Below, in pieces: positions 6,776 through 26,093 of a DNA stretch of 64,000 nucleotides. Location: positions 318,023 to 382,022 of IMG/VR virus record IMGVR_UViG_3300033489_000001; one strand, written 5' to 3'. The notes beneath the pieces were generated by a model. The model ran no database searches. It was given only the letters and a program-made list of their open reading frames with translations, and was not told the DNA's origin. Position numbers and translations under genes: made by a program. Source of the stretch: a virus. Its lineage: Duplodnaviria; Heunggongvirae; Uroviricota; Caudoviricetes. Every line of letters starts with the position of its first letter. The first letter of the stretch is position 1.

Positions 6776-6810
6776 TTAATTTGCACTCCGTAAATTTCTA
6801 CTGTAATATA

Positions 6811-6847
6811 CGGAGAAGGTTTTATGCCTTCTCCGTATAATTGAAAC
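6811..6847 (+). CRISPR. solitary CRISPR-like repeat
   Basis: CGGAGAAGGTTTTATGCCTTCTCCGTATAATTGAAAC, 37 nt, perfect hairpin with 3' ATTGAAAC; same architecture as the repeats at 16900-17082. Confidence 0.65.
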
Positions 6848-6858
6848 ACTGTGATATA

Positions 6859-6989
6859 TGCATGAATCCTTCTAAGATTTACAGCTCTTTGAAAAGATAT
6901 GCGGTTCTGAAAGAAAATCTTCTTTTGGATAAAATCTGAAAAGTAAGAGCTGTCAGGGAGAAGGTTTTACCTTCTCTGATAATTGAAAT
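6859..6989 (+). CRISPR. leader-like sequence plus solitary CRISPR-like repeat (6953-6989)
   Basis: Hairpin GAGAAGG-TTTTA-CCTTCTC ending ATTGAAAT; the upstream ~90 bp aligns with 25321-25420. Confidence 0.65.
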
Positions 6990-7001
6990 GATAATTGAAA
7001 T

Positions 7002-7100
7002 GTTGTCATCACCCGTCCGGTGATCATGAAGAACACCATCGCCGCAAAAAAACCAATGGGGAAGAATATAGGAATCAATTAGACCGGTTACTTCGTTCAT
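7002..7100 (-). pseudogene. truncated, frameshifted paralog of the 6290-6775 membrane protein
   Basis: MNEVTGLIDSYILPHW then, after a frameshift, FFAAMVFFMITGRVMTT aligns with MDSLSDFINSDVLPHWPFFSALIFFMVTGQVMVK; breaks off at the CRISPR-like unit. Confidence 0.7.
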
Positions 7101-7118
7101 GATTTGGATACAGTTTCC

Positions 7119-7307
7119 TCAGAGAGTCTTTCCTAAGGTCCCACCTTCCCATGCACTTAGCTTATGCAACCGTTCTTTAAGTTGCTGCTTTTGTTCTTGA
7201 GACAGGTTGGGATCGGATAAGGTGGCCTTAATACGCTCCCGGACTAGTCTTGCCCCTTCTTTACGTAAGTCAGGGGATAAATTTAAATAGTTTTGCCTTA
7301 TGATCAT
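7119..7307 (-). CDS. hypothetical protein
   Basis: 62-aa helical ORF with AGGAGAGG RBS, in operon orientation. Confidence 0.55.
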   Translation of the reverse strand: MIIRQNYLNLSPDLRKEGARLVRERIKATLSDPNLSQEQKQQLKERLHKLSAWEGGTLGKTL

Positions 7308-7378
7308 AGTGAGCCTCTCCTAAAGAAAACTGTAAAAAGGATTCTCAGCCTAGTTGGAGTCTTGCCCTATTGAATTCT

Positions 7379-9088
7379 TCATTCCTGAGGTAACTCAAGC
7401 ATGAGATTAAATATGCTCTCTTGCGTTTGTTTGTCCTTTATCTTTGTCAAAACAAGATTTCGGTTTTTATCGTGTACAATATCAGATGGAATTTTTGCCT
7501 TTGCAAATGGTTGAGCATCAGGATTAAAAATGTCTTCAACGCGAAGTATTTGAACACGATCAAAAACCCGTCTATCCCCCTCCACCCCCGTAGTAAATGT
7601 CCCCTTAGCCTTAGCCGCCGCTATCATGCCCGGAGTAATATACCTATCCCAAGCCACAAAAAGTCCTACAACTGCATCAGCCTCGTCAACGCTATTACAA
7701 AAAGCGCGTACTGCCCCAATATCTGTGTACCCACCTTTTACTTGGATAACTCCGGGACGACTCTTTTTGTCTGCAAATCCAATAACTGTAATATCCCCGT
7801 CAATTCCCCCATCATGACTACTCTTTCTTGGGATTCCGTCAAAATAATTCACTACCCAACAAGAGAAGGGATAATGTTGCTCAGCCAACTTCTGAGCTTC
7901 CTCAATATCTGTCGGTATGAAACTTTCATCAATCCAACAACCTTCTCCAAAAGTAGCATCTAACCTTTCTTTCGCTTTTTGTGCTACTTTATGAGTCAGT
8001 TCCATACCTAACCATTTTCTATTCAACTTCTGAGCCGCTATGGCAGTAGTACCGCTCCCCAAAAATGGATCTAAAACAAGATCTCCTGGATTAGAGCTGG
8101 CTTTAATTATGAGTTCAAGTAAAGCTAGCGGCTTTTGCCCATCAAAAACCACACATTCTTTTGAGTTTGGTCGAACTTGAATAATATCAAGCCACACCCC
8201 TTGCATAACAACCCCCTTCTCGGGATCTTCGTCTACATAGCACTTATACATTGGATGCCCACGCATTAAAATAAAGCCTGCTTCATACGCTTGATCTAAC
8301 ATTTCTTGGGGGGTGCCCGTAAGTTCTTTCCCGGTAACTCTCTGATAATTCTCTTTAAGATTTCTGCTTATCATCCAACTGTAGCCTCTTCCGACCTCGG
8401 TTGGATCAATCCCTCTCCAAGGTAAGCTGCTAGGGCCATTACTGACTCCACGCCCCATTGGATCTGCCCATCTCCATTTACGTCCATCAGTATCAATCCC
8501 ATCCCAATGGTCTTTGTACTTCTGCGTTGCAGTATGATAAACTTTATTCCAAGTATAGTTATTACTCTTGGTATAAAGAAAAATCATATCGTGATCAGAA
8601 GGTATTCTTCGAGCGTTATTATGTGCTGAAGTCCTTTTCCAAATTACTTGGTTACGAAAATTTTCTTCCCCAAAGATTAAATCAAGAAACACTTTCAAGT
8701 AGTGACCCGCATGTTGGTCACAATGCAGCCACAAAGATCCTTTTGATGTTAGGACCCTCTTGCACTCCCATGCTCTAGGGACCATTTGGATGAGATAAGC
8801 AACCGTACCACAACGACCTTTTGCTTTATAGATGGCTGTCAAATATTCCGCTACAACATCAGCGCCAGGCGGTACATGCTCAATAAAATCTCTATACGTC
8901 TTCTCAGCCTTCTCCCCAAAATTCCAGGTGTCTTCGTAGGCCCACTCATGGGCCATACTTTCAACTACGGTAATATTGTAGTCTCTACCCGAGTTAAAGG
9001 GAGGATCTAAATAAATTAGATCCACGGAAGCATCAGGCATAGCTCTTAAAGATATGAGGTTGTCTCCGACTTTGATTTTTTCGGTCAT
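7379..9088 (-). CDS. N6/N4 DNA methyltransferase (beta class) with C-terminal Mrr-like PD-(D/E)XK domain
   Basis: IYLDPPF catalytic motif, QKP..LL, LDPFLGSGTT SAM-binding motif; C-terminal DGGIDG...IQVKGG. Confidence 0.88.
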   Translation of the reverse strand: MTEKIKVGDNLISLRAMPDASVDLIYLDPPFNSGRDYNITVVESMAHEWAYEDTWNFGEKAEKTYRDFIEHVPPGADVVAEYLTAIYKAKGRCGTVAYLIQMVPRAWECKRVLTSKGSLWLHCDQHAGHYLKVFLDLIFGEENFRNQVIWKRTSAHNNARRIPSDHDMIFLYTKSNNYTWNKVYHTATQKYKDHWDGIDTDGRKWRWADPMGRGVSNGPSSLPWRGIDPTEVGRGYSWMISRNLKENYQRVTGKELTGTPQEMLDQAYEAGFILMRGHPMYKCYVDEDPEKGVVMQGVWLDIIQVRPNSKECVVFDGQKPLALLELIIKASSNPGDLVLDPFLGSGTTAIAAQKLNRKWLGMELTHKVAQKAKERLDATFGEGCWIDESFIPTDIEEAQKLAEQHYPFSCWVVNYFDGIPRKSSHDGGIDGDITVIGFADKKSRPGVIQVKGGYTDIGAVRAFCNSVDEADAVVGLFVAWDRYITPGMIAAAKAKGTFTTGVEGDRRVFDRVQILRVEDIFNPDAQPFAKAKIPSDIVHDKNRNLVLTKIKDKQTQESIFNLMLELPQE

Positions 9089-9573
9089 AATTAGCCTTTC
9101 CAGAAAAGCTCAGTCGATAAGTGATTTAATTTGGAGACTTTCCTTTTTTATAAGCTTACGGATTGTCTCTAGTGGAGAAATGTGAAAGTGTTTAGAACAG
9201 GAACAATGGCGTTGTTCCTTTATGGTACTAATTACACCGAAAATAGCTTTGTCTGAAAGAAGTTCGATAATTCTTTTGTGGAAGGATTTCACACGCGGAT
9301 GTGATAGGAGCTATTAATTTGCTCAGACGTTCTGAGGATAAACAAATTAATGGCTATGATGATCCATCCGAGGTGAAAACTCTCTTGAGAGAGCGATTTC
9401 GTTTTAAACGAACCAGTTCCTTGAGAGGGTTAAACGAGCCTTATGGCTAGGCCGGAAGCTTACTACCAAGGGATCTCTTAAGAGACGTTGGCATAGCTTC
9501 AAATGCTAAAAACAAAGCCACCGAAAATAGGTGTAAGTATTCCTAGGAGTTTCCAAATAGAAAGAGTCCCTTC

Positions 9574-9786
9574 ATGCAAATCCCCATTAACGTCATTGGC
9601 TATGAAGAAACCAGGAAAATCGCTGTTACCTATGATAAAGTGACTGGTAACGCTCTTGATTCCAAGCCGGTTCCTGACAGTGAACAAGCCCACCTTGATT
9701 TAGAACTTCCGTCCGGGCACGTTATACGAGCTGAAGTCCCTTATATTGATTTTTTAAGGCACATTGCGCCATTGATTACAGAATAG
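9574..9786 (+). CDS. hypothetical protein
   Basis: 70-aa ORF with protein-like composition and a GGTGTA motif upstream. Confidence 0.5.
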   Translation: MQIPINVIGYEETRKIAVTYDKVTGNALDSKPVPDSEQAHLDLELPSGHVIRAEVPYIDFLRHIAPLITE

Positions 9787-9952
9787 CTTGCTAGAAGTTG
9801 AGTCCCGAATAGCTACTTGATGGAGGTGTCCGTGGCTCCATTGATAAGCTTATCGGGGGCGGCGTAAGTTTTTTACCTACAAATCAACGCGATCCCTTTT
9901 GAAATCCTTGAATTTTTCCTCTCTCCGGTGTAGTAATAGATAAGGAGAGAAT

Positions 9953-12271
9953 ATGGAAAAATTCATTTTCATCATAACTTTAGTGATTCTTGGGGGTTGC
10001 GGAACGTCTAACCGTTTAGCTTCTCCTATAATAAATGAAGATGGAAGCACGCCGGACGAAGTTGTAACCGGTGACGCCTTTAATACATCAGATGGCGAAG
10101 TTTCCGAAGCGGCCGTCAACAAAGACGTAGAGGTTGTTGAAGCGGACCAGGATGCCGAGCCAAAAGATGCGGGCCAAGACTCAAGCTCCACGGATAGTCA
10201 AGTTTCTGACGCTGATGTAAAAGACGGCAGTCAAAATGTTGACAGCTCGGTCCAAGATTCAAGCTCCCTGGACGCTAATCAAGATTCAAGCTCCACGGAT
10301 GCTGGCCAAGACTCAACCACGCCGGACGCTAATCAAGATGCGGGTCAAGATGCCGCTCCAGTGTGCGTCCCGACCTGCTCGGGCCTTGTACCTCAGACTT
10401 GCAATGCTAACGGAAACCTCGTAAATGGCTCGCCTTGCCCTTATCTTTGTGCCGTTGGTTCTTGCATTGGCATTTGCACTCCTAATGATACTCAGTGCTC
10501 GGGCCTAAATTCGCAGACTTGTAACGCGGCCGGGCAATGGGTAACTAGCCAAACTTGCCCTTATACATGTTCGGGCGCTGGAGTTTGCAGTGGGAGTTGT
10601 GAAACCAATGCTACTCGATGTGACGGTAACAACTCTAAGACTTGTAACAGCTCGGGCCAATGGGAAACCACAGAAACTTGTCTTTACGTCTGTTCCGGGG
10701 CTGGAATTTGCTCAGGCTCATGTGTACCACAAACTACGCAATGCTCCGGTAATTACAATAATACCCCTCAGACGTGTGATGCTACCGGAAACTGGGTCTC
10801 AGGCACCACTTGTCCTTACGCTTGTATAAATGGGAGTTGTTACGGATCTTGTTTCTACGGAGCTACGCGCTGCTCGGGTAATGATTCTCAAACCTGTGGC
10901 TACGATATGCAATGGCATACCGATCATACATGCCCTTACGTTTGTAAAAATGGTGGGACTTGTTCCGGTAGTTGCGTTCCAGGGTCAAAACAGTGCAACG
11001 GAAACACCACTCAGACTTGTGACTCAACCGGTACTTGGCAGAATGTCTCAACTTGCCAGTTTATGTGCTCTAGCGGCTCTTGCACGGGCGTTTGCGTCCC
11101 CGGCAATACAATGTGCTCAGGGACTCAAATCCAGACTTGTAATGCCTCTGGGCAATGGAATACGGCTTCTAACTGTGCGGCGGTAGCCGGTGCCACTTCC
11201 TATTGCTCGAATGGGGCTTGTGAGTTCAACTGCAACCTCGATTACGATGACTGCGATGGCCTTCCCGGTAATGGTTGTGAGGTTAACCTAAATACGGACA
11301 AAGACAACTGCGGTCAATGCGAGCATAGTTGCTGCGGCGGGACTTGCGAGAATGGGAATTGTGGGATGTATGACACTGGGATTAATCCTGACAATACAGC
11401 CTATGATGTAGACTCAAACAACATTTACTGGTCTACGTCTACGGAACTCAACCAACGCCCACGTACCGGTGGTTCAACCACTGTGTTGGAAACAAATCAG
11501 CCTACAATCAAAGGTGTCACGGTGTCCGGGTCCAATGTGATTTGGAGTTGTGTAGGAACGAACCAAATCAATGGCGGCATCTTTTCTGAGCCAGTTGGCG
11601 GCGGAACGATGACCACTTATACTACGGAAGGTGACAAAGACTATATAACTGCTACAGCTAACGATATCTTCTATACGAGAGCCGACAAAGCAAGTGTTGA
11701 GTACGTTTCAAGGACGAGTAACTCTACGGGTGTGCTCCTTGGTAACACGCTTCCGGATGGCACTCCGGCTAACTTGACCTATGCCATTCCGTTTGTCTCG
11801 GACGGAACATACCTTTACACGAGTTATTCTAGCTATCCGACCGGCCAAAAGCCTATCGTGAAAGTTCCGGTGCATGGCGGCCAGATTACGACTTTTGCTA
11901 CTCCTACGACGCCGGGCTACTATCCTAATGGCCTCTCAATTGATAGCATCAATCTATACTATGTCCTTATCACTATCAATGGCTCAACAACTACTATGAC
12001 AGTTCAAAAACAACCTCTTGCCGGTGGCCCTGCTTCTTCCTTGACCCCGTCCAACTCGCAACTTGGAATATCTACAGCCACCGATGGAACTAATGTCTAC
12101 TATAGCACAAATAAGGCCATTCTAAAAGTTTCCACTAGTGGTAATACCCCTATTACGATTGCCACACTAAGCAGCACTACAACTATAAAAAACATCAAAG
12201 TCTCGAATCAATGTGTGTATTGGTATAACAGCTCGACCAGCACAATCCAAGCGGTAGCTGTCAATCCTTGA
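9953..12271 (+). CDS. Cys-rich repeat lipoprotein with C-terminal beta-propeller-like domain (myxobacterial style)
   Basis: RBS AAGGAG; lipobox LGGC; D/S-rich linker; ~42-aa C..CSG..QTC...G.W.....C repeats; DCDG...NGCE...D..NCG.C motif; D...(I/V)Y(W/Y) propeller blades. Confidence 0.8.
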   Translation: MEKFIFIITLVILGGCGTSNRLASPIINEDGSTPDEVVTGDAFNTSDGEVSEAAVNKDVEVVEADQDAEPKDAGQDSSSTDSQVSDADVKDGSQNVDSSVQDSSSLDANQDSSSTDAGQDSTTPDANQDAGQDAAPVCVPTCSGLVPQTCNANGNLVNGSPCPYLCAVGSCIGICTPNDTQCSGLNSQTCNAAGQWVTSQTCPYTCSGAGVCSGSCETNATRCDGNNSKTCNSSGQWETTETCLYVCSGAGICSGSCVPQTTQCSGNYNNTPQTCDATGNWVSGTTCPYACINGSCYGSCFYGATRCSGNDSQTCGYDMQWHTDHTCPYVCKNGGTCSGSCVPGSKQCNGNTTQTCDSTGTWQNVSTCQFMCSSGSCTGVCVPGNTMCSGTQIQTCNASGQWNTASNCAAVAGATSYCSNGACEFNCNLDYDDCDGLPGNGCEVNLNTDKDNCGQCEHSCCGGTCENGNCGMYDTGINPDNTAYDVDSNNIYWSTSTELNQRPRTGGSTTVLETNQPTIKGVTVSGSNVIWSCVGTNQINGGIFSEPVGGGTMTTYTTEGDKDYITATANDIFYTRADKASVEYVSRTSNSTGVLLGNTLPDGTPANLTYAIPFVSDGTYLYTSYSSYPTGQKPIVKVPVHGGQITTFATPTTPGYYPNGLSIDSINLYYVLITINGSTTTMTVQKQPLAGGPASSLTPSNSQLGISTATDGTNVYYSTNKAILKVSTSGNTPITIATLSSTTTIKNIKVSNQCVYWYNSSTSTIQAVAVNP
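10176..10359 (+). repeat. 27-bp coding tandem repeat (QDSSxxDAx)
   Basis: CAAGA(T/C)TCAAGCTCC units recur at 27-nt spacing. Confidence 0.7.
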
Positions 12272-13283: not shown

Positions 13284-13383
13284 ATATTCTCCTCCTTAGT
13301 TGTAGAGAAAACATGTATACAACATGCTTTGAGAGAAGGCAACAAAAAAAATGCTTACTTTGAGGGAAAGCAAGATAAATTAT

Positions 13384-13411
13384 TTGACAGATACCTTTCT
13401 GATGGTAAAAT
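13384..13411 (+). promoter_or_regulatory. sigma70-type promoter
   Basis: TTGACA-16 bp-TAAAAT with extended TGn; ATG 9 nt downstream. Confidence 0.7.
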
Positions 13412-13419
13412 GAGGTAAA

Positions 13420-13629
13420 ATGAAAGACTTCCCGCTTGAACAATGGTTTGATTTAACTAAGAAAATCAGTAAAGACGATGTAACTGACTGCTTATCTCAA
13501 ATGATGCTTTATGCTTACAAAGATGGTTCAAAGCTTAAGGGTAAAGAATGGCAAGAGACTAAAAGAGAATTACGTCAAGCAGTCAAGATCCATAACTGTT
13601 CTTTGTACCTTAAAAATCATAACTCATGA
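13420..13629 (+). CDS. hypothetical protein
   Basis: Follows a strong promoter; ATGA overlap with the next gene. Confidence 0.6.
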   Translation: MKDFPLEQWFDLTKKISKDDVTDCLSQMMLYAYKDGSKLKGKEWQETKRELRQAVKIHNCSLYLKNHNS

Positions 13630-14207: not shown

Positions 14208-14224
14208 GTGGAAATGCCTACCAC

Positions 14225-14797: not shown

Positions 14798-14815
14798 GCA
14801 AAAAACGAAATTAAA

Positions 14816-15310: not shown

Positions 15311-15341
15311 ACAGCACGGTTCAAGCGGTAGCGGTCAATCC

Positions 15342-15369
15342 TTGACCGGTATTTTCCCGATGGTAAGCT
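15342..15369 (+). promoter_or_regulatory. sigma70-type promoter
   Basis: TTGACC-16 bp-TAAGCT with TGn; spacer ends in GATGG as at 13384. Confidence 0.55.
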
Positions 15370-15372
15370 AAA

Positions 15373-15747: not shown

Positions 15748-15809
15748 AGCAACAGCTCAACCAGCACTATCCAAGCCGTGGCTGTGAGTCCATAACTCTA
15801 ACTTCCCCG

Positions 15810-15841
15810 AAAAGGTCAGGGATTAAGTCCTTGACCTTTTT
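15810..15841. terminator. bidirectional intrinsic terminator
   Basis: AAAAGGTCAGGGA-TTAAG-TCCTTGACCTTTTT hairpin with A and T tracts. Confidence 0.7.
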
Positions 15842-15866
15842 ACTTTTAACCAATGGAACACTGACT

Positions 15867-16300
15867 GTGCCTACTTTTCGCGAGATAAATGCTATAAACA
15901 TATTTGGTAGACTTGTTACGGTTTTAGAGATTCTAGATGATAATCATCAACCGGTTGGTGACGCTGAATTGAGCTTTGACGACTCAAAAATTGCTGTACT
16001 TGAAGATTTTTATATACGCCGGGCTCATCGTGGAAAACCCCATAATTACGGCAGAGCACTTCTAAAGGAGATCCTCGGGAGGGTTCAACGTCAAGGGGCA
16101 ACTATTTTACGTTGTCATCCCCGCACTTATGAACGGCGTTATGATGAACGGCGTGGTGCCCCCAAATTTTTAATTGTACTAAGAAAATGCCAGAAGCTAA
16201 ATTAATAGAATGGTATGCATCTCAAGGTTTCAGAGAAATTGATCAGGACTCAGATGAATTTCAGCAACATTGTTTAAGACTCTGCATAGCGTTAAGATGA
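15867..16300 (+). pseudogene. frameshifted GNAT acetyltransferase, paralog of 17163-17600
   Basis: ILDDNHQPVG.AELS and RAHRG..YG..LL are shared; the C-terminus PEAKLIEWYASQGF continues in the -1 frame after ~16170. Confidence 0.8.
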
Positions 16301-16314
16301 TGAGAGCAACTTAG

Positions 16315-16833
16315 TTACGCAACCATTTTTCCAGTAAAGAACTCGAATTTGGTTGGTAACTGTCTAATACAATCATTAAAATCATTAGTAGCGAACGTCG
16401 CCCGTTCTAAACACGGCTCTAGAGGAACGTTTGAACAACCTAAACCCATATCCCCCATCTGCCGTTGAAACCACCCATAGAAGCGCAAACCTTCTAAAAT
16501 ACCAAGCTTGTCAGCATACTTGGTCAGCCTCTTCATTTGATCCTCAATAGGGGCACACCAACCCTTCAATCTCTCTGGACCATCTGGGGTTTTTTCAAAC
16601 CCATCGAATTTAAACATGGGGAAATTGAACTCAGTTTTAGTTGGCGTCTCTATTAATTTTATTTCATTATTGGTGAAGCCTGAGGCCAAAACCAAGCCGA
16701 TCTCTGTGGCCTTAAAAAATGGGCGGCCATCACGTATCCACCGCCAACTTATTGGGATAGTATCAATAGTTGAAATTGCCTTAATCGTGTAAGTTTCAGG
16801 TTCTGCTTTAATTGGATTTGAACTTTGTTGCAT
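16315..16833 (-). CDS. hypothetical protein, paralog of 17578-18111
   Basis: Shared IPISW.W, ATE..LVLASG...NEIKLIE, LRFYG.F.R.MG.M.LGCSN.PL. Confidence 0.75.
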   Translation of the reverse strand: MQQSSNPIKAEPETYTIKAISTIDTIPISWRWIRDGRPFFKATEIGLVLASGFTNNEIKLIETPTKTEFNFPMFKFDGFEKTPDGPERLKGWCAPIEDQMKRLTKYADKLGILEGLRFYGWFQRQMGDMGLGCSNVPLEPCLERATFATNDFNDCIRQLPTKFEFFTGKMVA

Positions 16834-16899
16834 AGATGCCTCTTACACCAGCAAACATAGAAAAAGATCCTCTCGGTATTCATTCCGTGTACTCGACCG

Positions 16900-17082
16900 G
16901 TGAAAAGAACTAGAGGGAGGTTTTAGCTCCCTCTAGAAAATACCAAGGAGAGTTGACCCCCATCGTAGTCCAGTTTCAATTACAGAGGGATTTTTTTAGC
17001 TCCCTCTAGCCTTGCGAATTTGTCGTGCATTAGCATCGCCGTAGTGTTTCAATTACAGAAGGAGTTCTAGTTCCCTCTACAG
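16900..17082 (-). CRISPR. CRISPR mini-array: 3 divergent 37-bp repeats and 2 x 36-bp spacers, no cas in window
   Basis: Repeats at 17046-17082, 16973-17009 and 16900-16936 (exact 73-bp period); minus-strand repeat CTAGAGGGAGCTAAAAAAATCCCTCTGTAATTGAAAC; last repeat degenerate at its 3' end. Confidence 0.8.
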
Positions 17083-17128
17083 AGAGCTTACTTTTTAATT
17101 GCAACAACGGCAACAACTTAAATGATGA

Positions 17129-17156
17129 TTGACCTAAAATTATTAGGCTTTACATT
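17129..17156 (+). promoter_or_regulatory. sigma70-type promoter, probably leaderless GNAT transcript
   Basis: TTGACC-16 bp-TACATT, ATG 7 nt downstream. Confidence 0.55.
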
Positions 17157-17162
17157 TGGCCT

Positions 17163-17600
17163 ATGCCTTCTTTCCTTATAGAAGAGGTAAAAAAATCTGG
17201 TAGGCTTGTTGCTAGCATAAAAATCCTGGATGATAACCACCAACCAGTGGGCAATGCGGAATTGAGTCTTATCAACCCAAATACTGCCAGGCTTGATGAT
17301 ATTTACATATACCGGGCTCATCGCGGAAATAGCTATGGCGTTGAACTTCTAAAGAAGACTCTTGAAGAAGCAAGACGGCAGGGAGCTACTATTTTACGTT
17401 GTCACCCAAGCCCCTACGAATATGGACCTAATGAGTTGAAGGATAAAAGAACACTCCCTAGTCGCACGCCACAAGCCAAGTTAATAACGTGGTACGTGGC
17501 TCAAGGATTTAAAGAGCTTAACCTTAAACTAGAACAAGATCGTGATGAATTTGAACGATATTCTTGCAAACTTTACATTATGCTGAACTCGACCACTTGA
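17163..17600 (+). CDS. GNAT-family acetyltransferase
   Basis: LDDIYIYRAHRGNSYGVELL acetyl-CoA motif A; WYVAQGF. Confidence 0.85.
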   Translation: MPSFLIEEVKKSGRLVASIKILDDNHQPVGNAELSLINPNTARLDDIYIYRAHRGNSYGVELLKKTLEEARRQGATILRCHPSPYEYGPNELKDKRTLPSRTPQAKLITWYVAQGFKELNLKLEQDRDEFERYSCKLYIMLNSTT

Positions 17601-18111
17601 AGCTTTTTGGCAGCTTTTCTACAAACTCAAATGAGTCAAAGGTGAGCGGATTGGAACCTAAAGGAATATTTGAACAGCCTAAACTCATAAGCCCCATATG
17701 ACGCGCAAAAACCCCGTAAAACCGTAAACTTTCAAACATACCCAACCTAATTGCATATTGCACTAAGGTTTTCACCCGATCCTCAATAGCGTGCCAGGCT
17801 TCGGATTCTTCTATATCTGCTTTGGGTAACCAGGTTCCAGATTTCTCCACGCCCTCCTTAAATAATTCCGTTTCAAACATAGAGAGTCTAACCTCTTTTT
17901 GGACTTGGCCTTCGATTAGTTTTATTTCGTTACTAGCATATCCTGAAGCCAAAACGAGGTTATTTTCTGTCGCGCTAAAGACAGGAAAACCATTGGTCAT
18001 CCACCACCAACTTATTGGGATAATTATAGGGTCAGGAATGACATTTAGATATTCACTCATAGAGGCAAGAGAAACAGATCCCTTAGAATAAAGTTCTGTG
18101 TTCGTATCCAT
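17578..18111 (-). CDS. hypothetical protein, paralog of 16315-16833 (start MDTNTE at 18111)
   Basis: Paralogy; ATG immediately after the upstream stop. Confidence 0.7.
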   Translation of the reverse strand: MDTNTELYSKGSVSLASMSEYLNVIPDPIIIPISWWWMTNGFPVFSATENNLVLASGYASNEIKLIEGQVQKEVRLSMFETELFKEGVEKSGTWLPKADIEESEAWHAIEDRVKTLVQYAIRLGMFESLRFYGVFARHMGLMSLGCSNIPLGSNPLTFDSFEFVEKLPKSFKWSSSA

Positions 18112-18112
18112 T

Positions 18113-21100
18113 TTAGCTTCTCTTAGACAACGTAATAGTTGAAGGATCAATAGTTAGGCGAACGTTGTTTCTAACAAGTGGGTGGCCCTCTATTCTAGCT
18201 AGATCAGCGGCAGAGTAACCTTCATTCTTTCCGTTCGTCCCTATGGCTATATCCCCTGGAATCGGGGTTCCAACGGTAGGACGAACTACGTTGGTTATGA
18301 CTAGCATCATCAACTCATCCCCCGCAGAGACTTCAGTAGCGCCTACATTCGTTGGAGCGTTTCTAACAAGCATGGCTCTACCCATTAGAACGTTGGTGTG
18401 ATTATCAGAAGGTAGAAGGGACTGGCCTTGAAGTGAAATTTCGCCGCCTGGATGGGGTCCATTTCCAACAAAAACAGAACCGCCTCTGTTCACTCTGAAA
18501 TTAGTTAGAAGTGAGTAATTTCCTTGTTCACCATCAACATGAACAAGCACGTCTCCAGGGGAAACAACACCAGAGGATGCCGTGTCCAAAGGCATCTCAT
18601 CTTGTTCCATGTGGTTGACAGCTAAGCCCGTGGAATGGCCTGCCGCAACGTCGTTTGAAAACACTAACGGCGATTGAGTGATCCCAAATAGTTGACCTTT
18701 AAGATCTGAATCGCGAAAAAGTGCTCCCAAGGGAAGGACATCGCTTCCATGATATTCTGTTCCAATATCCGTTAGATTATAAGAGGAGAAAGTGTTTGGC
18801 AAAGACAACGGACGATCATCGTAACTATGAGCGGGCGGATAATTAGTTGGGTCCGCGAAAGCTACGTCCATAAAATGTAGTGGAGAAATAGAACCATCAC
18901 CCGCAAACCGACCAGTGCCTAATGTAGTTGCGAAAGAAGTAGAGGCTAAAACCTCTACCACTTTTTGGTTAGGTCGAGTAAGTGCAGCTTGATTCAATTG
19001 CGTATGAGAAAGTTGATATGCATCGCCGGATAGAAGAGGACCGGGTTTATAACCAGTATCTGCGTAGGATGTCTGTGAGCCCCAAGCATCGCCTTGATAC
19101 GAACTACGACTATGATTAATTACTACCTGGTCAGAGGATTGAGCCGGGCCGGGAAGAACAGCGGAAGGACCGGCTACGTACTTGTTGATGTTGTTATGAC
19201 GCCCGGTAATGGAAGTTTGATCTACCGGGCCGCCTTTAACCGATGACCAACTGTTTGAAAGAACACCCGATGGTTGCGTCATTACCAATCGGGCTTCTGA
19301 GTTAAGGTCAAACGTTCCACGATCAAAACCGAAGATAGAAGCTTCAATCACATAATTTCCTGACGCAAAAGAAGCTATTGGATTTGGAGAACGAGCAATA
19401 TCAATAGCATTTGCGTTTAGAATAAATGTGGAGTCCCCATCATCATCAATTTCTATCCACATAACTGGACCGTCTGATTGAGTCATGTTCTGGCGCAAGA
19501 GATTCGTGGCCCCTCCAGTAATAGGTGCTCTTGTACCTGCATCAAAAGCTGACCCTCCGTTTGGACCGGATGTAGTAAAGTAATTGGTAGCTTCATATAC
19601 AGCGAATAAACGAGCAACTCCGTAGAAAGGTGGTAATTCTAACCCTTGTCGGCCAAGACTTCTGGTGTCCGTGAAGAAACGCATCCCTGCATAATTATTA
19701 CTGTATATTGTTAGGGCCGCATTGTAAATCGCCGGTAGTGCCGTGGTGGGATCTATAGTTGTAAAAGCCGCGTAGGTACGAACCGAGCTTGGATTGTAAT
19801 TTACATAATTCTTGTCAGCGTCTCCGTAACTACTCCCACTTTTACTATCGGTAACAAAATTGATGCCTTGTGAAAAGACGGAACCAACGTCATTGGGTAG
19901 AATAGGAAGACGCAATTCGCCCCAACCGGGCACTAGATGGCGTGGAAGACTTACGTAGATACTACTATAAGCATCATTAGAAGCAGTTGTGCCACAGAAT
20001 AAACCCAGAGGATCGGTGGTTGTCCATTTAGCAGTAGTGCCATCTCGTTCATTAAGGGGCATCACACCCTGTGCTTGGTGTACCGCAAAAGTGACCGAAG
20101 TACTACCTTTAGCCTTAATCGGACGATCAACAGTAATTGAGGTAGAAGGTGTGATGCCAATAACAGTGTATCGACCAGCTCCAGGACCACTGGTAATAAC
20201 TACAGCGTCTCGTAATGCCGTAGTCCCTACACTCCCCACCGTTATAACAGGGGAGTTATCTGTACCTATAGTACCCGTCGTGGGGGCTCCAGCCTTAACC
20301 GCCGTGTAGGGATTAGCTGCCATCCCATCTATAGTAAGTAAACCGATTCCTGCATCATTGGGGAAATTGATTCTACGGAAAGGCGTCAATATGATAGATT
20401 TACTTCCGAGATCCGCATAAACCTCAGAGGTTACTGGGAGTAAATTATTAAAAGCGGCGCTTCTAAATTTGCTCCACAAAGGAGCCCAACTCACTCGTGA
20501 ACCTTGGTTGCTAGAAGGAATCCCTGATTGTTGGACAAGTAACTCGGCTGAAGGATTGATATAAGAAACTGAGTGAAGTGAATTCGGCCGCCTTGATAAC
20601 CCACGCCCCGCCCCATAAACTGCATGAAGTGTGATGTGAAGGATAGTTGGGGTCGCAGTCAAAGAGGTTTGCGTTGGGAAAGTGCCGCCGAAAGTAATGA
20701 CCAAATCATCTGATGGGGTTGGAACCGCCGGAGTCACTGTATACATTGTGGGAGGGATGGGGTCGGTCTCCCCGTCAAACCTAAGACTTACCGCACCAAC
20801 CACACTATCATTTAACCACCTTACTTGGTCAGTATCGCCTCCAGGAAGTCCATGCTGCAAATTCGAAACTGGGACGGAAATCACGTCACCACTTGCAAAG
20901 ACATCCCCAGTCACTTGGTTCGTCGTCTTAACCGTGAACCCTAAGCTCCATCCCACATTTATATCAGCCGTCCCCGGAGGGGTAACTGTAGAGCCATGTG
21001 GTTTTACAATGCACTCAATTGGCTGCACCACAGCGGCATCAGAGAACACCATACGGATGTTGTCAGGAGCGTCAAGCTTAGTCACCCCAAGGGCTACGGC

Positions 21101-22480
21101 GGACGCCGTGATGGCGTCTTGATAGATCACATAGGGGCCTTGAGGACCGGCTCCTGAGCGCTTCCAGTTAGCCCTTAGCTGCCCTTTTAGAAGCTTGTCT
21201 AGATTGCCCTTGAGAAGGGCATCGTAGTCAAAACCGTTAGGATTGACTACATGTCGCAAATCTAAGATGTCTGTCAAGGCAATCTGATCGGAGAAAAGCC
21301 CGTCAGGACGCCCTGACATGACCTTGACTATTGATCCTGCTTTGTGAAGCTCAGCCCTGGTTCCGTTTTGACCTCGAGCAGCAATGTTGAGAGTTGAGCC
21401 CGTGATTGATGAATAGGTCATCAACTCATCACCGATCTGAATTAGAACGGGAGTGGCCGGGTTGACCGGTAAGGGGATGTTAGCCACGGAAGTTAGCGCT
21501 ATGGACGTGGCCGAAGCGGACATGTCAGCAGCGAGAGTTGGAACTGTAGAAAAAGTCGCAATCCCCGTGCGATCTACAGCGGTGGGATTGCGATTGAACC
21601 CTCCGTTGAGATTCTGAGACGGAGATCCATTCCACGAAACGGAATTGCGGCGGAAAATAGCGGCAATGGGAATGGCGTAAACATAGCCATCAACCGTGCC
21701 AAGAGCGTTTTGAGTCCCATCTCCTGCCCGCCATAAGCCCGCATCACCGAGCACCTGTCTCATATTTGTGAAAGTGTAAGAAGTTGGAGCAGTGGCAGCG
21801 CCTTGAGCTTTAACAACTACGGGATCAAAACCGTCAGGATTTGAAGTCAAGCCTATCAAACCCTTTACAACACGTATCCGGTATTGAATTTGGGTGCGTT
21901 GACTTGTCTCAAAGCCTATAGCCGGATCGATCAAATCATCAGAAAGGAAGGCGAAGCCACCTTCAACGTTACCTAATTTCCAAATGCCGCTAGCCGCTGG
22001 CTTATTTGTGGTTGAAGGGTTAGGTTGAATTCGAGCTTTCCACACTTCAAGATAAGCAAAGTCGATTCTGAAATCTCCACTGGCCGAAGGCGGTGGATCT
22101 AGCGCAACAACGTTGGTTGTCTCGGTTGAAGGCGTGCCCGGCGGATTACCCGTTCTTGTCCCCGCAACGGGTATAAGATTTCCACCCACGTTTGCAAAAA
22201 CCACTGAGTTTTGCTCGCCCGTACGATGAGGACCGAACTTGAAATAGTTAGAATATGAGGGGTCAGTGGCGAAGATAGCTTGAAGGTTCGTCTCATTACC
22301 AAGCCATCCCGAAGGCATTCCTCGAAGGTTCGCCGATTTAATGGCACCAGCAGCGATACTATCCTTTAGATTCAATTCAGCATCGCATAACGGCTTCCCC
22401 TCTTCCGAAATTATATTCTCGAATTGGGTGCTTGTAGCATCAAGGACTCGTGATACCTCAGTACCAAAATATTCGCTCAT
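18113..22480 (-). CDS. large virion structural protein (baseplate/tail-fibre associated)
   Basis: 1455 aa, beta-rich; N-terminal LEVW...ETS.R.QIQYR.RV...GLW.AGDG...LGTVDGY.YA.P...FRRN...RPDGLF.D block shared with 28578-31166. Confidence 0.6.
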   Translation of the reverse strand: MSEYFGTEVSRVLDATSTQFENIISEEGKPLCDAELNLKDSIAAGAIKSANLRGMPSGWLGNETNLQAIFATDPSYSNYFKFGPHRTGEQNSVVFANVGGNLIPVAGTRTGNPPGTPSTETTNVVALDPPPSASGDFRIDFAYLEVWKARIQPNPSTTNKPAASGIWKLGNVEGGFAFLSDDLIDPAIGFETSQRTQIQYRIRVVKGLIGLTSNPDGFDPVVVKAQGAATAPTSYTFTNMRQVLGDAGLWRAGDGTQNALGTVDGYVYAIPIAAIFRRNSVSWNGSPSQNLNGGFNRNPTAVDRTGIATFSTVPTLAADMSASATSIALTSVANIPLPVNPATPVLIQIGDELMTYSSITGSTLNIAARGQNGTRAELHKAGSIVKVMSGRPDGLFSDQIALTDILDLRHVVNPNGFDYDALLKGNLDKLLKGQLRANWKRSGAGPQGPYVIYQDAITASAVALGVTKLDAPDNIRMVFSDAAVVQPIECIVKPHGSTVTPPGTADINVGWSLGFTVKTTNQVTGDVFASGDVISVPVSNLQHGLPGGDTDQVRWLNDSVVGAVSLRFDGETDPIPPTMYTVTPAVPTPSDDLVITFGGTFPTQTSLTATPTILHITLHAVYGAGRGLSRRPNSLHSVSYINPSAELLVQQSGIPSSNQGSRVSWAPLWSKFRSAAFNNLLPVTSEVYADLGSKSIILTPFRRINFPNDAGIGLLTIDGMAANPYTAVKAGAPTTGTIGTDNSPVITVGSVGTTALRDAVVITSGPGAGRYTVIGITPSTSITVDRPIKAKGSTSVTFAVHQAQGVMPLNERDGTTAKWTTTDPLGLFCGTTASNDAYSSIYVSLPRHLVPGWGELRLPILPNDVGSVFSQGINFVTDSKSGSSYGDADKNYVNYNPSSVRTYAAFTTIDPTTALPAIYNAALTIYSNNYAGMRFFTDTRSLGRQGLELPPFYGVARLFAVYEATNYFTTSGPNGGSAFDAGTRAPITGGATNLLRQNMTQSDGPVMWIEIDDDGDSTFILNANAIDIARSPNPIASFASGNYVIEASIFGFDRGTFDLNSEARLVMTQPSGVLSNSWSSVKGGPVDQTSITGRHNNINKYVAGPSAVLPGPAQSSDQVVINHSRSSYQGDAWGSQTSYADTGYKPGPLLSGDAYQLSHTQLNQAALTRPNQKVVEVLASTSFATTLGTGRFAGDGSISPLHFMDVAFADPTNYPPAHSYDDRPLSLPNTFSSYNLTDIGTEYHGSDVLPLGALFRDSDLKGQLFGITQSPLVFSNDVAAGHSTGLAVNHMEQDEMPLDTASSGVVSPGDVLVHVDGEQGNYSLLTNFRVNRGGSVFVGNGPHPGGEISLQGQSLLPSDNHTNVLMGRAMLVRNAPTNVGATEVSAGDELMMLVITNVVRPTVGTPIPGDIAIGTNGKNEGYSAADLARIEGHPLVRNNVRLTIDPSTITLSKRS

Positions 22481-22624
22481 GGTGTCTTCCTCTGATTTAA
22501 TTCAAGGGGCACAATAACCCATCAAAAGGGAAAGTTTATAGAGAGATCCGCGATTTCAAGATTTACACCAAATCTAGCTATTTTGACATCCGAAAAACAC
22601 CATTAACGGTCAATCTCTATTGGC

Positions 22625-22785
22625 ATTCGGGACTCAACTTACTAAACTTTCATTCAACAAGTTAAGATTTTGTTCCGATTCTTGCTTCATAGAAGACAGC
22701 CTACTACCACGCCTTGGCCCCTTCGGGGCTTCGGTCTTCTCATGAAGTCATACGTGCATAAGGGAGGATTTACAGTTGACGGAAC
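22625..22785 (-). ncRNA. putative TnpB omegaRNA-like / IS right-end remnant
   Basis: Nested stems CTTCATGAGAAGAC...GTCTTCTATGAAG and GCCCCGAAGGGGC; CTATGAAGCAAGAA matches CTATGAAGCAGGAA at the tnpB remnant. Confidence 0.4.
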
Positions 22786-23516
22786 TAATCAGAAATCTTG
22801 AATAAATTCAGATTGAAGTTCTTTACTGTATAATCTGTTGTGTCTGTACTATTCTTACCCGATATCCATAGCCGCTTTCCAACCGTTACAGTAATCAATC
22901 CACCGGCGGACATGGCCGCTAGAGTATTCGTACTATTGCGTTCTGTGACAATATTATCTGTGGGCGTAATTCCGATATTCAACTCCCACTTCCAATCCTT
23001 GTTAACATTTGCCGCTGTACCGTCAATTGTAAACCTTGCAACGTAAATCCCTGCTGCGGTTGAACCGGCTTGTAGATAGGCCGGAGCATAAACCACGCCA
23101 GCGGATGCTCCAGCTCCCGCAACATAAGTCACATCATCGCAGGAGAATTTGGTGGTATCCACATAGGTTACACGAGTAGCTTTATTGTGCCCCGCATTAT
23201 TCATATTAGCGAGCGTTACGATATCTCCAGTGACAAGTCCATGTACTGCCGAACACTCAACTTCAAGAAGACCCCCTACGTTTGCTTCATTAGTTATATC
23301 GGCGTCAACAATCCGTCCAGCGTTAAAAGTCCAATCAAGTAATAAACCTGCTACTATATCGCTAGCAGTACGCAACCCAAAGGCATGGTATACCCCTGCC
23401 GTAACGATGTTGAAAGCTATAGCTTTGTTGTACGCATACATCTCGCCGTAAGCTGGTTTAAGCTTAGAAAATGCGATGCTGGTATCTACTATGCTCTTAG
23501 CTGCCAACTTAGTCAT
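22785..23516 (-). CDS. virion/tail-fibre accessory protein
   Basis: HGLVTGDIVTL beta motif; position in the structural operon. Confidence 0.5.
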   Translation of the reverse strand: MTKLAAKSIVDTSIAFSKLKPAYGEMYAYNKAIAFNIVTAGVYHAFGLRTASDIVAGLLLDWTFNAGRIVDADITNEANVGGLLEVECSAVHGLVTGDIVTLANMNNAGHNKATRVTYVDTTKFSCDDVTYVAGAGASAGVVYAPAYLQAGSTAAGIYVARFTIDGTAANVNKDWKWELNIGITPTDNIVTERNSTNTLAAMSAGGLITVTVGKRLWISGKNSTDTTDYTVKNFNLNLFKISD

Positions 23517-23543
23517 CGTTTTATCTTTCCTGAGATCTAAATA

Positions 23544-24317
23544 TTACTTGTAATAGTCGATGATCAGAATATCATCCTCAGCAATTTCTTCTGATAGACC
23601 CGTAGCTACTACGTTAGCGATATGCACGCGATCAAAGTTAGGAGTGATTACATCAAAATCAGGAGTCGCGCCGGTAGCACCAACGCACTGTTTATTTACT
23701 TGCCGAAAGCCTCCAACTACAGTAACCGCTACAGATTGAGCATTAACTGAGGATGCGCTCAATGTAAAATATCCGGCAGTCACCTCTCCAGACGTGACTT
23801 TATGCATCTCTTGGACGTAATCAGAGATGGTTGTGAATTTATCCATCGTGAGATCATCAGTCCCAATGATTCCCGATCCGGTGTTATTTTTACAGTTCCA
23901 CCCGGTATCAGCGTCAGTTCCACGCTCGATAAAAACGACTGCACCGGCAAAGTCCATACCCACGGCCGCGTCATCCGTTCTAACCATTGGAACGGCGGCA
24001 CCTTTCCAAAGGTAAATACCATCTTGCGTTGCTGTGCCTTGCAGGTCACATAAGACACGCTCATCAAGCACCATTGTCTCACCGTCGATAGTCGCTCCAG
24101 GAGCGGCTATTGTGACGCTGGCTTGCGCTCGAACTTGAACAGGAGTTTTCCACTTCCCCGCATCGAGATCAGTTTTTCGCACTGGCTGATCTGGATCGGT
24201 GGGAGCAGCGACTTCAATAGTACAAGCTGAAAAATCATAATCTTGACCTGAAGCAACATTCAGCTTTGCAGCATCAATAGTAGAATCAGAAACGTATTTA
24301 CCATTCAGTTTTGACAT
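23544..24317 (-). CDS. tail-fibre-like structural protein
   Basis: WK.PV.V...TIDG......ERVL...Q....QDGIY......RT.DA........FIERGT motif typical of phage fibre N-terminal domains. Confidence 0.65.
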   Translation of the reverse strand: MSKLNGKYVSDSTIDAAKLNVASGQDYDFSACTIEVAAPTDPDQPVRKTDLDAGKWKTPVQVRAQASVTIAAPGATIDGETMVLDERVLCDLQGTATQDGIYLWKGAAVPMVRTDDAAVGMDFAGAVVFIERGTDADTGWNCKNNTGSGIIGTDDLTMDKFTTISDYVQEMHKVTSGEVTAGYFTLSASSVNAQSVAVTVVGGFRQVNKQCVGATGATPDFDVITPNFDRVHIANVVATGLSEEIAEDDILIIDYYK

Positions 24318-24335
24318 TTTAGTTCATTCCTCTCC

Positions 24336-24815
24336 CTAACAAATCACTTGAACAACATCCCCATCTTCCAAAAGTATGTACAAATCAGTCACAGAAGGAT
24401 TACTTCCCCCACTAAAACTCCCTCCGCCTGGAGCAGTACTCATAGGGTCAATACAGACATAATACCCTGGAGCTGAACCTCCAGTTACAGAACGAATCGT
24501 AAAATCTATTCCATATTGTTGTAGTATTCCGTCAATCGGATGTAAAAGAACGTTAGATAGTGTTAGAGTAGGAATAGTAAGGGGACCTATTACTCCATTT
24601 ATAGTATCTGTATATGTGTACTGTCTAACGCTTAAACCACCGTAAGGGGTTTGCCAGGCATAAGCAGTTGGACTGGTAGCCGTAGGCACTTGACCTACTG
24701 TGGGAGGGGCTGCCGCTGCACCTGAAACCGGGGCTCCGGTAGTAGCCAACTCTACAGCGCCCGTTTGGCCGGGTGCCTGTGGAATTGAACTAAATTGATT
24801 GTAGCGTGTTCCCAT
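24336..24815 (-). CDS. structural protein
   Basis: IDGILQQYGIDFTI motif common in large-phage virion proteins. Confidence 0.5.
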   Translation of the reverse strand: MGTRYNQFSSIPQAPGQTGAVELATTGAPVSGAAAAPPTVGQVPTATSPTAYAWQTPYGGLSVRQYTYTDTINGVIGPLTIPTLTLSNVLLHPIDGILQQYGIDFTIRSVTGGSAPGYYVCIDPMSTAPGGGSFSGGSNPSVTDLYILLEDGDVVQVIC

Positions 24816-24817
24816 CT

Positions 24818-25204
24818 TTATTGCTTTTGCACTTTCATAAGGGAGAGGCTTTCTAAGTTCCCACGGTCAACTCTAACTATCTCAAACTTTGAAGCTTGCA
24901 GACCTTCCCTAAGAACTTTGTGAGCTTCTTCAGGAATCCCTGAGCCACACGTATAAAAATCCACAGCAGCATACCCGTGCTCCGGCCAGGTATGAATAGA
25001 GAGATGGGACTCTTCAATAACTACGACTCCACTTACGCCCTGGGGATTAAAAGGATGAAAAACAGACGCAACGATGCGAGTTCTAGCTGCTAAGGCAGCT
25101 TTCTCCATCAGCTCTTTTATTTGAGCCATATCGTCAAGTGTGGCTTGATTGCACCCTATATACTCGACCAAGAGATGTTTGCCGTGCGTGTTCAATTTCC
25201 ACAA
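24818..25204 (-). CDS. speD: S-adenosylmethionine decarboxylase proenzyme
   Basis: GKHLLVE, F.PQGVSGVVVIEESHLSIHTWPEHGYAAVDFYTCG. Confidence 0.92.
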   Translation of the reverse strand: MWKLNTHGKHLLVEYIGCNQATLDDMAQIKELMEKAALAARTRIVASVFHPFNPQGVSGVVVIEESHLSIHTWPEHGYAAVDFYTCGSGIPEEAHKVLREGLQASKFEIVRVDRGNLESLSLMKVQKQ

Positions 25205-25320
25205 AATCTCCTATAAGTAATGTCTATCGGTGGTTCAGATCCCATCTTCTTTAGCATTATAAAATCTTGGCTCTTTATTTTAAATTTGCGTTTAGTGAAT
25301 TTTTGGGTTAATTTATTGTA

Positions 25321-25457
25321 GCAAGTCCTTTTTAAGGTTTTGAATTCTTTGAGAAAAGGTAAGCGGTTCTAAGAGATAGTCTTCTTTTAGGTAAAACCTG
25401 AAAAGCAAAAGGATTGACTGCCTAGGGAGGACTCTAAGTTCCTCCTGTAATTGAAAC
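25321..25457 (+). CRISPR. leader-like sequence plus solitary CRISPR-like repeat (25421-25457)
   Basis: CCTAGGGAGGACTCTAAGTTCCTCCTGTAATTGAAAC; the upstream sequence aligns with 6859-6950. Confidence 0.65.
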
Positions 25458-25466
25458 TAATTGAAA

Positions 25467-26093
25467 CTATAAGTAAAGCAATGCCCAAGATCCTAAATAT
25501 ATCCGCTTTCCAGAGGTATTTTGAAAACGAATGATAAAAGAAGTTCCTTGATCAGGGACGGGAATATTGAGAACTTCACCGTTAAGTACTGTGTTATAAG
25601 TACTACCTCCATTAAAACTGATCCCACAAACTAAATTGACTCCCGTTTCTTCAACATAGGTTCTCTGAAATCTATCAGCTTTGTCATCTGAATCTGTAAA
25701 TATGTATTCTTCCCAAACCAACACGCATTGAGTGGGAGCAAATCCAAGTACATGGGATACTGAAAAGCATAATCCTGCATCGAGGAGGAAAGCATTTACC
25801 CAACCTGAAGTAACGATAATTCCCGTAGTTCCAGATGCAGCCAGATTAAAACTAGCCCCACCCATACAGGTATCGGCAAGGATATCCGTAAAACCGGCAT
25901 AAGAAGCTAACAACCCATCATATTTGGCCGTCAATAAATCGGTAATATTAGTTGGATTGTTGTGTATAGCCACACCATCAGGAACGCGGATAACCGTTGA
26001 TCCTGTGGCTTCTGATTGACCAGTTTCTGCTGTAAGGACATCAGTAATGTCTCCAGCAGTTGTGAACGGATCTATTAAATAATGTATCGACAA
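25467..26093 (-). CDS. virion structural protein (original start displaced by an IS remnant)
   Basis: ISFNGGSTY...FIIRF..YLGSWALLY C-terminus; TTG start lies within the element end. Confidence 0.6.
   Translation of the reverse strand: MSIHYLIDPFTTAGDITDVLTAETGQSEATGSTVIRVPDGVAIHNNPTNITDLLTAKYDGLLASYAGFTDILADTCMGGASFNLAASGTTGIIVTSGWVNAFLLDAGLCFSVSHVLGFAPTQCVLVWEEYIFTDSDDKADRFQRTYVEETGVNLVCGISFNGGSTYNTVLNGEVLNIPVPDQGTSFIIRFQNTSGKRIYLGSWALLYL

Follow-up and report, generated by a model that had tools for sequence, protein, structure and literature searches.

This report concerns a dispersed family of hairpin repeats in a 64,000-nt stretch of tailed-phage DNA (hereafter the window), which corresponds to bases 318,023–382,022 of IMGVR_UViG_3300033489_000001, a single 411,618-bp virus record that has direct terminal repeats and is rated complete. 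Five of the hairpin repeats in the window end in TAATTGAAAY; a sixth, terminal hairpin lacks this handle (Table 1). These units are very probably derivatives of CRISPR repeats, cognate to a type I-C variant that the phage itself encodes. The same genome carries, about 125 kb upstream of the window, a cas operon (cas5c-cas8c-cas7c plus a superfamily 2, SF2, helicase), and the cas genes lie directly upstream of, and on the same (minus) strand as, a main CRISPR array at genome positions 189,027–193,627, in which covariance model R1 (see below) counts about 65 repeats of 33–62 bits. A preliminary description, made from the sequence of the window alone, had called the family "Cas-less". There is indeed no Cas1, Cas3-HD, Cas6 or Cas7 in the 64 kb, but this does not extend to the genome, which encodes Cas5c, Cas8c, Cas7c, the helicase and the large array of the same repeat family. 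The array came to light when the whole genome was scanned for the handle.

The dispersed repeat family

Covariance model R1 was built from the main-array repeats alone, and the window was scanned with filters off. It recovers the five repeats for which a score is given in Table 1, and nothing comparable in the other 40 kb. These are five of the six repeats first described, while the sixth is the hairpin without a handle; the earlier reading of the units as repeats of a class 1 CRISPR system, with one locus forming a mini-array, is supported. The window has seven occurrences of the motif TAATTGAAAY, whereas 0.6 would be expected, and a count this high is not attained in any of 100 shuffles. The conserved tail is 10–11 nt long rather than 8 nt as originally proposed, and after two of the solitary repeats the handle is also duplicated in tandem.

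The family is larger than the six members initially counted. Eight further satellites are found outside the window, on the plus strand at genome positions 139,082, 140,794 and 143,377, and on the minus strand at 154,079, 164,197, 165,298, 202,158 and 218,441, which brings the dispersed family to at least 13 units genome-wide (five in the window and eight elsewhere). As the handle served to find the units, its invariance among them follows in part from the way they were searched for. All 13 satellites fold to a hairpin that ends just before the handle, and the minimum free energy (MFE) is -9 kcal/mol or lower in 11 of them, compared with 5% of random windows. The strand that bears the handle is more stable than its complement in every case (13/13), which fits an RNA with G-U pairs. 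A model-fitted alignment of the satellite stems leans towards structure and also takes in three low-scoring rows that are spurious. In it, 95.7% of the stem cells are paired and seven of nine pairs are changed on both sides, bearing out the earlier remark that the stems diverge while their pairing is kept. The satellites reach only 12–25 bits with model R1, compared to 33–62 bits for array repeats, and their hairpin part is 56–64% identical to the nearest array repeat. No Rfam family reaches its gathering score in the window, and no tRNA gene was detected there.

Table 1. Positions of the repeat units and leaders in the window, and genes of the cas locus (window coordinates unless marked otherwise)
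Feature	Position	Strand	Remarks
Solitary repeat w6847	6810–6847	+	13-bp hairpin then TATAATTGAAAC; upstream of leader A copy; model R1 17.2 bits; MFE -22.8
Leader A, copy 1	6885–6946	+	~62 nt; predicted nested hairpin CTGAAAGA/TCTTTTGG within AGAT/ATCT; nhmmer E 4e-18
Solitary repeat w6989	6955–6989	+	hairpin then GATAATTGAAAT; model R1 20.8 bits
Tandem second copy of 12-nt handle GATAATTGAAAT	6990–7001	+	seen in the sequence
Mini-array repeat R1	17046–17076	-	covariance model 22.3 bits
Mini-array spacer 1	17009–17045	-	~36–37 nt
Mini-array repeat R2	16973–17008 (model match 16973–17005)	-	covariance model 25.3 bits
Mini-array spacer 2	16937–16972	-	36 nt
Terminal degenerate mini-array repeat R3	16900–16936	-	perfect 10-bp hairpin, no handle, then TTCTTTTC; MFE -16.5
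Leader A, copy 2	25346–25408	+	nhmmer E 3.7e-19
Solitary repeat w25457	25423–25457	+	hairpin then GTAATTGAAAC; model R1 25.2 bits
Tandem second copy of 10-nt handle TAATTGAAAC	25458–25467	+	abuts stop codon of convergent 208-aa open reading frame (25467–26093, minus)
Cas-locus gene			Myb-like protein
Cas-locus gene			Cas5c
Cas-locus gene			Cas8c (Csd1)
Cas-locus gene			Cas7c (Csd2)
Cas-locus gene			ResIII/DEAD helicase, 771 aa; helicase motifs from residue 9 (ResIII motif)
Cas-locus gene	L005 1044–1814	-	256-aa protein, methyltransferase-like predicted fold; between helicase and array
Cas-locus gene			66-aa protein, weak FaeA-like match

The main array and the cas genes

The consensus repeat of the main array has a 9-bp stem (a purine-rich/pyrimidine-rich hairpin) followed by an unpaired 11-nt tail, GTAATTGAAAC. 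Eleven nucleotides is also the length of the type I-C 5' handle in the Cas5d literature. The consensus shows the stem-loop and unpaired 3' tail of about 11 nt, ending in ATTGAAAC, that mark a type I-C repeat, and the window units keep the hairpin followed by TAATTGAAAY. The hairpin and handle had initially been read as a Cas6-type processing signature; the tail length, the I-C type of the effector genes and the lack of a Cas6 in the genome do not agree with this, and cognate Cas5c, Cas8c and Cas7c are present instead. In type I-C systems, repeat processing is ascribed to Cas5 by two studies (PMC7162821; PMC10651486).

The array repeats split into several stem subtypes with compensatory changes: 45 cells are changed on both sides, a count reached by none of 500 shuffles. 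The repeats of a normal array are near-identical, and heterogeneity of the stems to this degree is unusual for a CRISPR array. The five leader-proximal repeats are identical. Spacers range from 19 to 54 nt, most of them 31–40 nt, and six or seven of the repeats are followed by a tandem handle duplication, mostly those in which the first handle is mutated. The Rfam CRISPR-DR families give no match to the main array even at E ≤ 1. No second array was found elsewhere in the phage genome, nor one of the CasPhi type.

The phage Cas5c aligns over its full length to the solved type I-C pre-crRNA (CRISPR RNA precursor) endonuclease of D. vulgaris (E ~1e-15). The scores of Cas5c, Cas8c and Cas7c all lie under the NCBIfam trusted cut-offs, indicating a divergent variant. 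Cas1, the HD domain of Cas3, and Cas6 have no match anywhere in the complete phage genome. A canonical type I-C system has a Cas3 with HD nuclease and a Cas1-Cas2-Cas4 adaptation module, and the phage system departs from it in both respects. Since there is no Cas3_HD and no Cas1, and the helicase starts at its ResIII motif, the effector belongs to the published "variant" rather than to canonical I-C; that is, it is a type I-C variant without Cas1/2/4, without the Cas3 HD nuclease and without Cas6. For the helicase, no relative of solved structure was found by sequence, and a single homologue (35%) is located on a 2.8-kb contig.

The 256-aa protein encoded between helicase and array has no Pfam match. 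Its Atlas model resembles class I S-adenosylmethionine (SAM)-dependent methyltransferases with template modelling (TM) scores of 0.55–0.67, at low predicted local distance difference test (pLDDT) values, so it looks like a SAM-methyltransferase-like fold and not a nuclease. A 453-kb relative (see below) has a 198-aa gene at the equivalent position.

Leaders

A conserved leader, leader A, is found by nhmmer at exactly four loci genome-wide, two of them in the window (Table 1) and the others at genome positions 138,977 and 218,535. The homology stops exactly at the end of the handle. Copies of leader A are 81–92% identical, whereas the adjoining hairpins are only about 40% identical yet still paired, so the module is unlike a set of recent neutral copies. 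The leader homology noted in the preliminary description is real (the two window copies are 82% identical), although the leader is about 62–75 nt long and not about 100. For leader A, RNAalifold predicts two nested helices, the inner one a hairpin, and one pair is compensatory (AGAT/ATCT vs AGGT/ACCT); this is weak evidence that the leader may form part of an RNA.

A different leader of about 160 nt, leader B (about 88% identical), is common to the units at 164 and 165 kb. These two units flank, as direct repeats (genome 164197–165500), a gene of 302 aa whose family is unknown, much like a gene-sized "spacer". Leaders A and B have the box CTCYTTGAAAAG in common, while GTTCTTTGACAAT is shared between the main-array leader and that of the 453-kb relative; the shared box may be a common -35-like element. 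Leader A and repeat w6989 are crossed by a 73-aa open reading frame (ORF; window 6879–7100, minus), the N-terminal half of which resembles a real small protein, while its C-terminal half is read from the unit.

Downstream architecture and gene context

The mini-array consists of R1, a spacer of 36–37 nt, R2, a spacer of 36 nt and the terminator-like R3. A terminator scan called the R3 hairpin (16936–16910, minus) terminator-like, and R3 is likely to be the terminator of the mini-array. The three repeats are mutually different, and therefore the spacers must be old and not recently acquired. A similar order is seen in some units elsewhere in the genome. In unit u140k a promoter-like TTACGC-16-TATACT precedes a repeat, which a 36-nt spacer separates from a degenerate second repeat (hairpin, ATTGAAGA, T-rich run); in u143k the repeat is followed after about 33 nt by a strong terminator hairpin; and u202k, which sits inside the cas neighbourhood, ends with a terminator-like hairpin. 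Overall, a hairpin starts at +28 to +50 in five of 12 units (u143k being counted by eye, as its loop exceeds the script limit), compared to 12% of random sites.

The solitary units are intergenic and located on a mobile element, as expected of solitary repeat units and RNA anti-CRISPRs (see below). The context of the family is mixed: six units are antisense to the genes around them, and five occupy intergenic sites of divergent or co-directional type. Unit u218k is convergent with a tRNA-Tyr gene (218302–218385), and the ORF called over this region is probably not a gene. The phage genome has 36 tRNA genes and a transfer-messenger RNA (tmRNA; tag ANDNAALPLAIAA) within 217595–250649.

The mini-array is situated exactly between the two copies of a tandemly duplicated two-gene cassette (window 15831–18150, ~70% identity), which is made up of a GNAT acetyltransferase (assigned by Pfam) on the plus strand and an unknown gene of 172/190 aa on the minus strand.

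Possible targets of the putative guides

A near-full match within the phage genome was found for none of the array spacers and for none of the segments that follow the satellites, and seed matches of 14 out of 16 nt are as frequent as in shuffled controls. Spacer 1 of the mini-array has no match in the own genome, IMG/VR or GenBank phages, and spacer 2 none in the own genome or IMG/VR.

Three partial self-matches are notable by their position, not by their score. The first involves sp39, a 25-nt array spacer (190839–190863), of which 18 of the 19 nt proximal to the protospacer-adjacent motif (PAM) match at 200675–200699 (L005 7675–7699, minus). This site covers a putative promoter, TTTACA-17-TATCGT, just upstream of cas5c, and sp39 is thus a candidate for CreR-like autoregulation from within the main array; a spacer of this kind was not found in the 453-kb relative. 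Another short array spacer, similar to sp39, is present at 191704–191729. The second is the guide of u218k, the best partial match of which genome-wide (15 of 17 nt, with wobble-compatible mismatches) is only 286 nt away at 218688–218727, just before the start codon of a divergent gene of 65 aa. In the third, 25 of 36 nt of the u140k spacer match 311 nt away, inside the neighbouring 210-aa gene (141070–141105). Taken together, the three partial matches hint at regulation by partial complementarity of the CreR/CreA kind.

Function of the satellites

Phage CRISPR systems without adaptation genes and nuclease are known, and the present genome is a tractable case, with one effector, one large array of repeats that are unusually heterogeneous though conserved in structure, and at least 13 satellites, some of them under a shared leader. 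The function that we tentatively favour, and that falls a little short of probable, is that the satellites are separately transcribed loci giving fixed crRNA-like guides to the nuclease-free Cascade of the phage. Each satellite would be a small transcription unit of its own, comprising a leader, one repeat (two plus the terminal one in the mini-array) and a unique downstream segment. Cas5c would cut at the 3' base of the hairpin, and the downstream RNA, retaining the 11-nt handle, would load into Cascade as a fixed, inherited crRNA-like guide. Without a recognisable nuclease, the complex would presumably act by binding (silencing or exclusion) and not by cutting. Speaking for this reading are the cognate cas operon and array, the recovery of the window units by the array-derived model, the covarying stems, the conservation of leader A, the unit-like order of elements in several satellites, the partial matches close to u218k and u140k and at cas5c, and the like findings in other huge phages. 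If the satellites do make guides, then a virus uses CRISPR as an inherited, multi-locus form of gene silencing and not as adaptive immunity, and the diversity of the stems would define the minimal RNA features needed by a type I-C Cas5.

A number of observations weigh against guides. Recognition of the satellites by Cas5c is not assured, because of their low scores relative to the array repeats. In the leader A units w6989, w25457 and u218k, neither a hairpin nor a second repeat follows that could set the 3' end of a guide, and sigma-70 scans found sigma-70-type promoters in the leaders to be weak or absent. The segments downstream of the solitary units of the window have no match above background in the own genome, and the three partial matches described above are flanked by TTA, TTT and TCC, i.e. 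by no consistent PAM. The mini-array spacers show no exact 22-nt match in IMG/VR, in a search that needed exact or near-exact matches, and blastn of the whole main array against GenBank phages gave chance-level matches only. A pure guide model has no need of a conserved and apparently structured leader upstream of the cut site, and the leader pattern is absent from IMG/VR and from Joint Genome Institute (JGI) metagenome contigs. The handle duplications of 10–12 nt are left unexplained as well, and none of the readings considered here accounts for the conserved leader together with these duplications.

An extended version of the guide model, which seems unlikely as a whole, is that of a hard-wired, nuclease-free Cascade regulon in a phage unable to acquire spacers. 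Inherited guides would be encoded at a dozen or more separately controlled loci, four of them under the conserved structured leader, and some would silence neighbouring phage genes or the cas operon. The stems would have been driven apart, with hairpin and 11-nt handle kept, preventing the loss of irreplaceable spacers by recombination. It is an attractive idea that a phage unable to re-acquire spacers may be under selection for stems that differ, since recombination between repeats would cost it spacers.

It is doubtful that the solitary repeats are decoys of the RNA anti-CRISPR (Racr) type, which would bind the Cas5c/Cas7c of a host or of a rival-phage type I-C system, or buffer those of the phage itself, leading to dead-end complexes. 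They would at the same time poison the phage's own cognate Cascade and its 65-repeat array, which has the same handle, and spacer-like segments bounded by a 3' hairpin or a second repeat are present in at least four units. Several others do lack any downstream repeat or hairpin, as decoys might; the duplicated handles at 6990–7001 and 25458–25467 would add Cas5c binding sites, and the varied stems could match several Cas5c variants. Solitary intergenic repeats in phages are, moreover, the defining picture of solitary repeat units (SRUs) and Racrs, and a type I-C Racr has been validated (PMC10651486). A handle-pair pattern search of GTDB returned arrays sharing the 11-nt tail, cyanobacterial and other, but these are of a different repeat family without a match to model R1, the cyanobacterial ones having unrelated GTTTCAAT-type repeats, so that mimicry of a host array is not evident. 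Decoying or hijacking of host Cas proteins, the inference originally drawn, keeps some probability; with a cognate effector encoded in cis, and no host array of this repeat type found, it has ceased to be the simplest reading. If decoys they are, RNA anti-CRISPRs would occur in one phage alongside a CRISPR system of matching type.

We also consider it unlikely that the units are empty or relic arrays with little or no present function, i.e. a leader and one repeat that remain after an array broke up or recombined, or arrays in the ground state that are open to spacer insertion by a host Cas1-Cas2-Cas4. A leader with a single repeat is a minimal array, one locus holds two spacers, and the satellites score low with the array model. 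The handle duplications of 10, 11 and 12 nt, which also occur in the main array, resemble scars of off-register integration, and in an unrelated viral contig (see below) a solitary repeat carries the leader motif of that contig's arrays. However, the phage has no Cas1, the mutually different repeats of the mini-array speak for old spacers, and neutral decay of recent copies does not predict strongly conserved leaders next to hairpins that have diverged but still pair.

Very improbable is a role unrelated to guides, in which the hairpins would shape neighbouring mRNAs, either as sites of Cas5c cleavage or as plain terminators, or would be the ends of a small mobile element. Of the units, six are antisense and border on gene 3' ends (e.g. 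25467 is the stop of a convergent ORF), R3 is terminator-like, and 11-bp direct repeats visible in the sequence flank 6811–6847; but the contexts are mixed (antisense, divergent and co-directional), no solitary hairpin is followed by a T-run or was called a terminator on either strand, a conserved 10–11-nt tail at a fixed distance from the hairpin is not a terminator feature, and neither terminal inverted repeats nor a transposase were seen. Terminators and ends of miniature inverted-repeat transposable elements (MITEs) were accordingly rejected on the lack of T-runs and terminal inverted repeats and on the conserved tail, as were tRNA-related elements, the window having no tRNA.

Relatives and known systems

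The 453-kb relative mentioned above is JGI contig 3300049448 Ga0495542_0000002, which has a Cas7c homologue with 49% identity and the same operon order, and the array of which (L073 14478–17900) also contains several repeat subtypes. A related-locus protein search gave no close relative of Cas7c, and a megablast search with 20 kb of the window had no match among GenBank phages. An unrelated 323-kb viral contig (IMGVR_UViG_3300037722_000745, 68% complete) has four arrays of a 36-nt repeat, consisting of a GAGGGAGG..CCTCCCTC hairpin followed by GTAATTGAAAC, the same 11-nt tail. Solitary repeats, all perfect, lie at four further places (10.7, 223.8, 286.0 and 322.4 kb), and one of them has the leader motif of the arrays. 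The phage studied here is therefore not the only case in which solitary repeats are dispersed beside arrays. Cas7c was not found in this 68%-complete fragment.

A type I-C variant in which a helicase takes the place of Cas3 has been described from huge phages, with a Cas5d-like protein taken as the processing enzyme (Al-Shayeb et al. 2020, PMC7162821). According to the passages of that study on the variant, the resemblance is close: Cas5d-like, Csd1-like and Csd2-like proteins, a helicase for Cas3, neither Cas1/Cas2 nor Cas6, and a genome above 200 kb. Single-repeat units dispersed through the genome, a common leader and repeat heterogeneity like that of the present phage are not mentioned in the same passages, and the phage arrays reported there are compact (median of six repeats), in contrast to about 65 here.

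Single intergenic phage repeats with an I-C-compatible hairpin and a ATTGAAAC-type tail are also a feature of the SRUs/Racrs, including RacrIC1 (Camara-Wilpert et al. 2023, PMC10651486). Racrs are defined as lacking cas genes and mimicking host repeats, whereas the phage described here encodes a cas operon and an array itself, with at least 13 units and a conserved leader, and a host array to match was not found. Mini-arrays that viruses carry for conflict with other viruses (Medvedeva et al. 2019, PMC6858448) similarly have one or two spacers between repeats, as at window 16900–17076, and the spacers are fixed; those viruses have no cas genes, borrow those of the host and carry spacers that match related viruses, while in the present case cas genes are encoded and no spacer target was found in searches that needed exact or near-exact matches.

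Diverged repeats are likewise seen in CreA/CreR and "standalone repeats" (Shmakov et al. 2023, PMC10120712; Liu et al. 2023, bioRxiv 10.1101/2023.03.10.532045) and in viral Cracr (bioRxiv 10.1101/2024.10.29.618823). Further possible points of likeness to such regulatory RNAs are a short spacer with partial complementarity to a putative promoter (sp39 and the region upstream of cas5c; u218k and its divergent neighbour) and the location of u202k in the cas neighbourhood. Unlike these RNAs, most of the units lie 50–150 kb from the cas genes, and those in the window have no partial self-match above background; there is also no type I-C case among the examples considered from these studies.

Phages with solitary repeats or mini-arrays, crRNA-like RNAs with a regulatory role, and the present cas variant of huge phages are thus all in the literature. 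What appears to be new is their combination in one genome, namely the number of satellites, the shared structured leader, and repeats conserved in structure only, both in the array and in the satellites. Whether the satellites turn out to be guides or decoys, the interpretation of solitary viral repeats is refined, and a repeat should be called Cas-less only after a cognate system has been looked for in the whole genome.

Other repeats in the window

Five tandem copies of another sequence, with a period of about 129 nt and 61–84% identity, occur at window 27784–28379 inside a 671-aa ORF on the minus strand (26550–28565), and probably represent a repeated protein domain.

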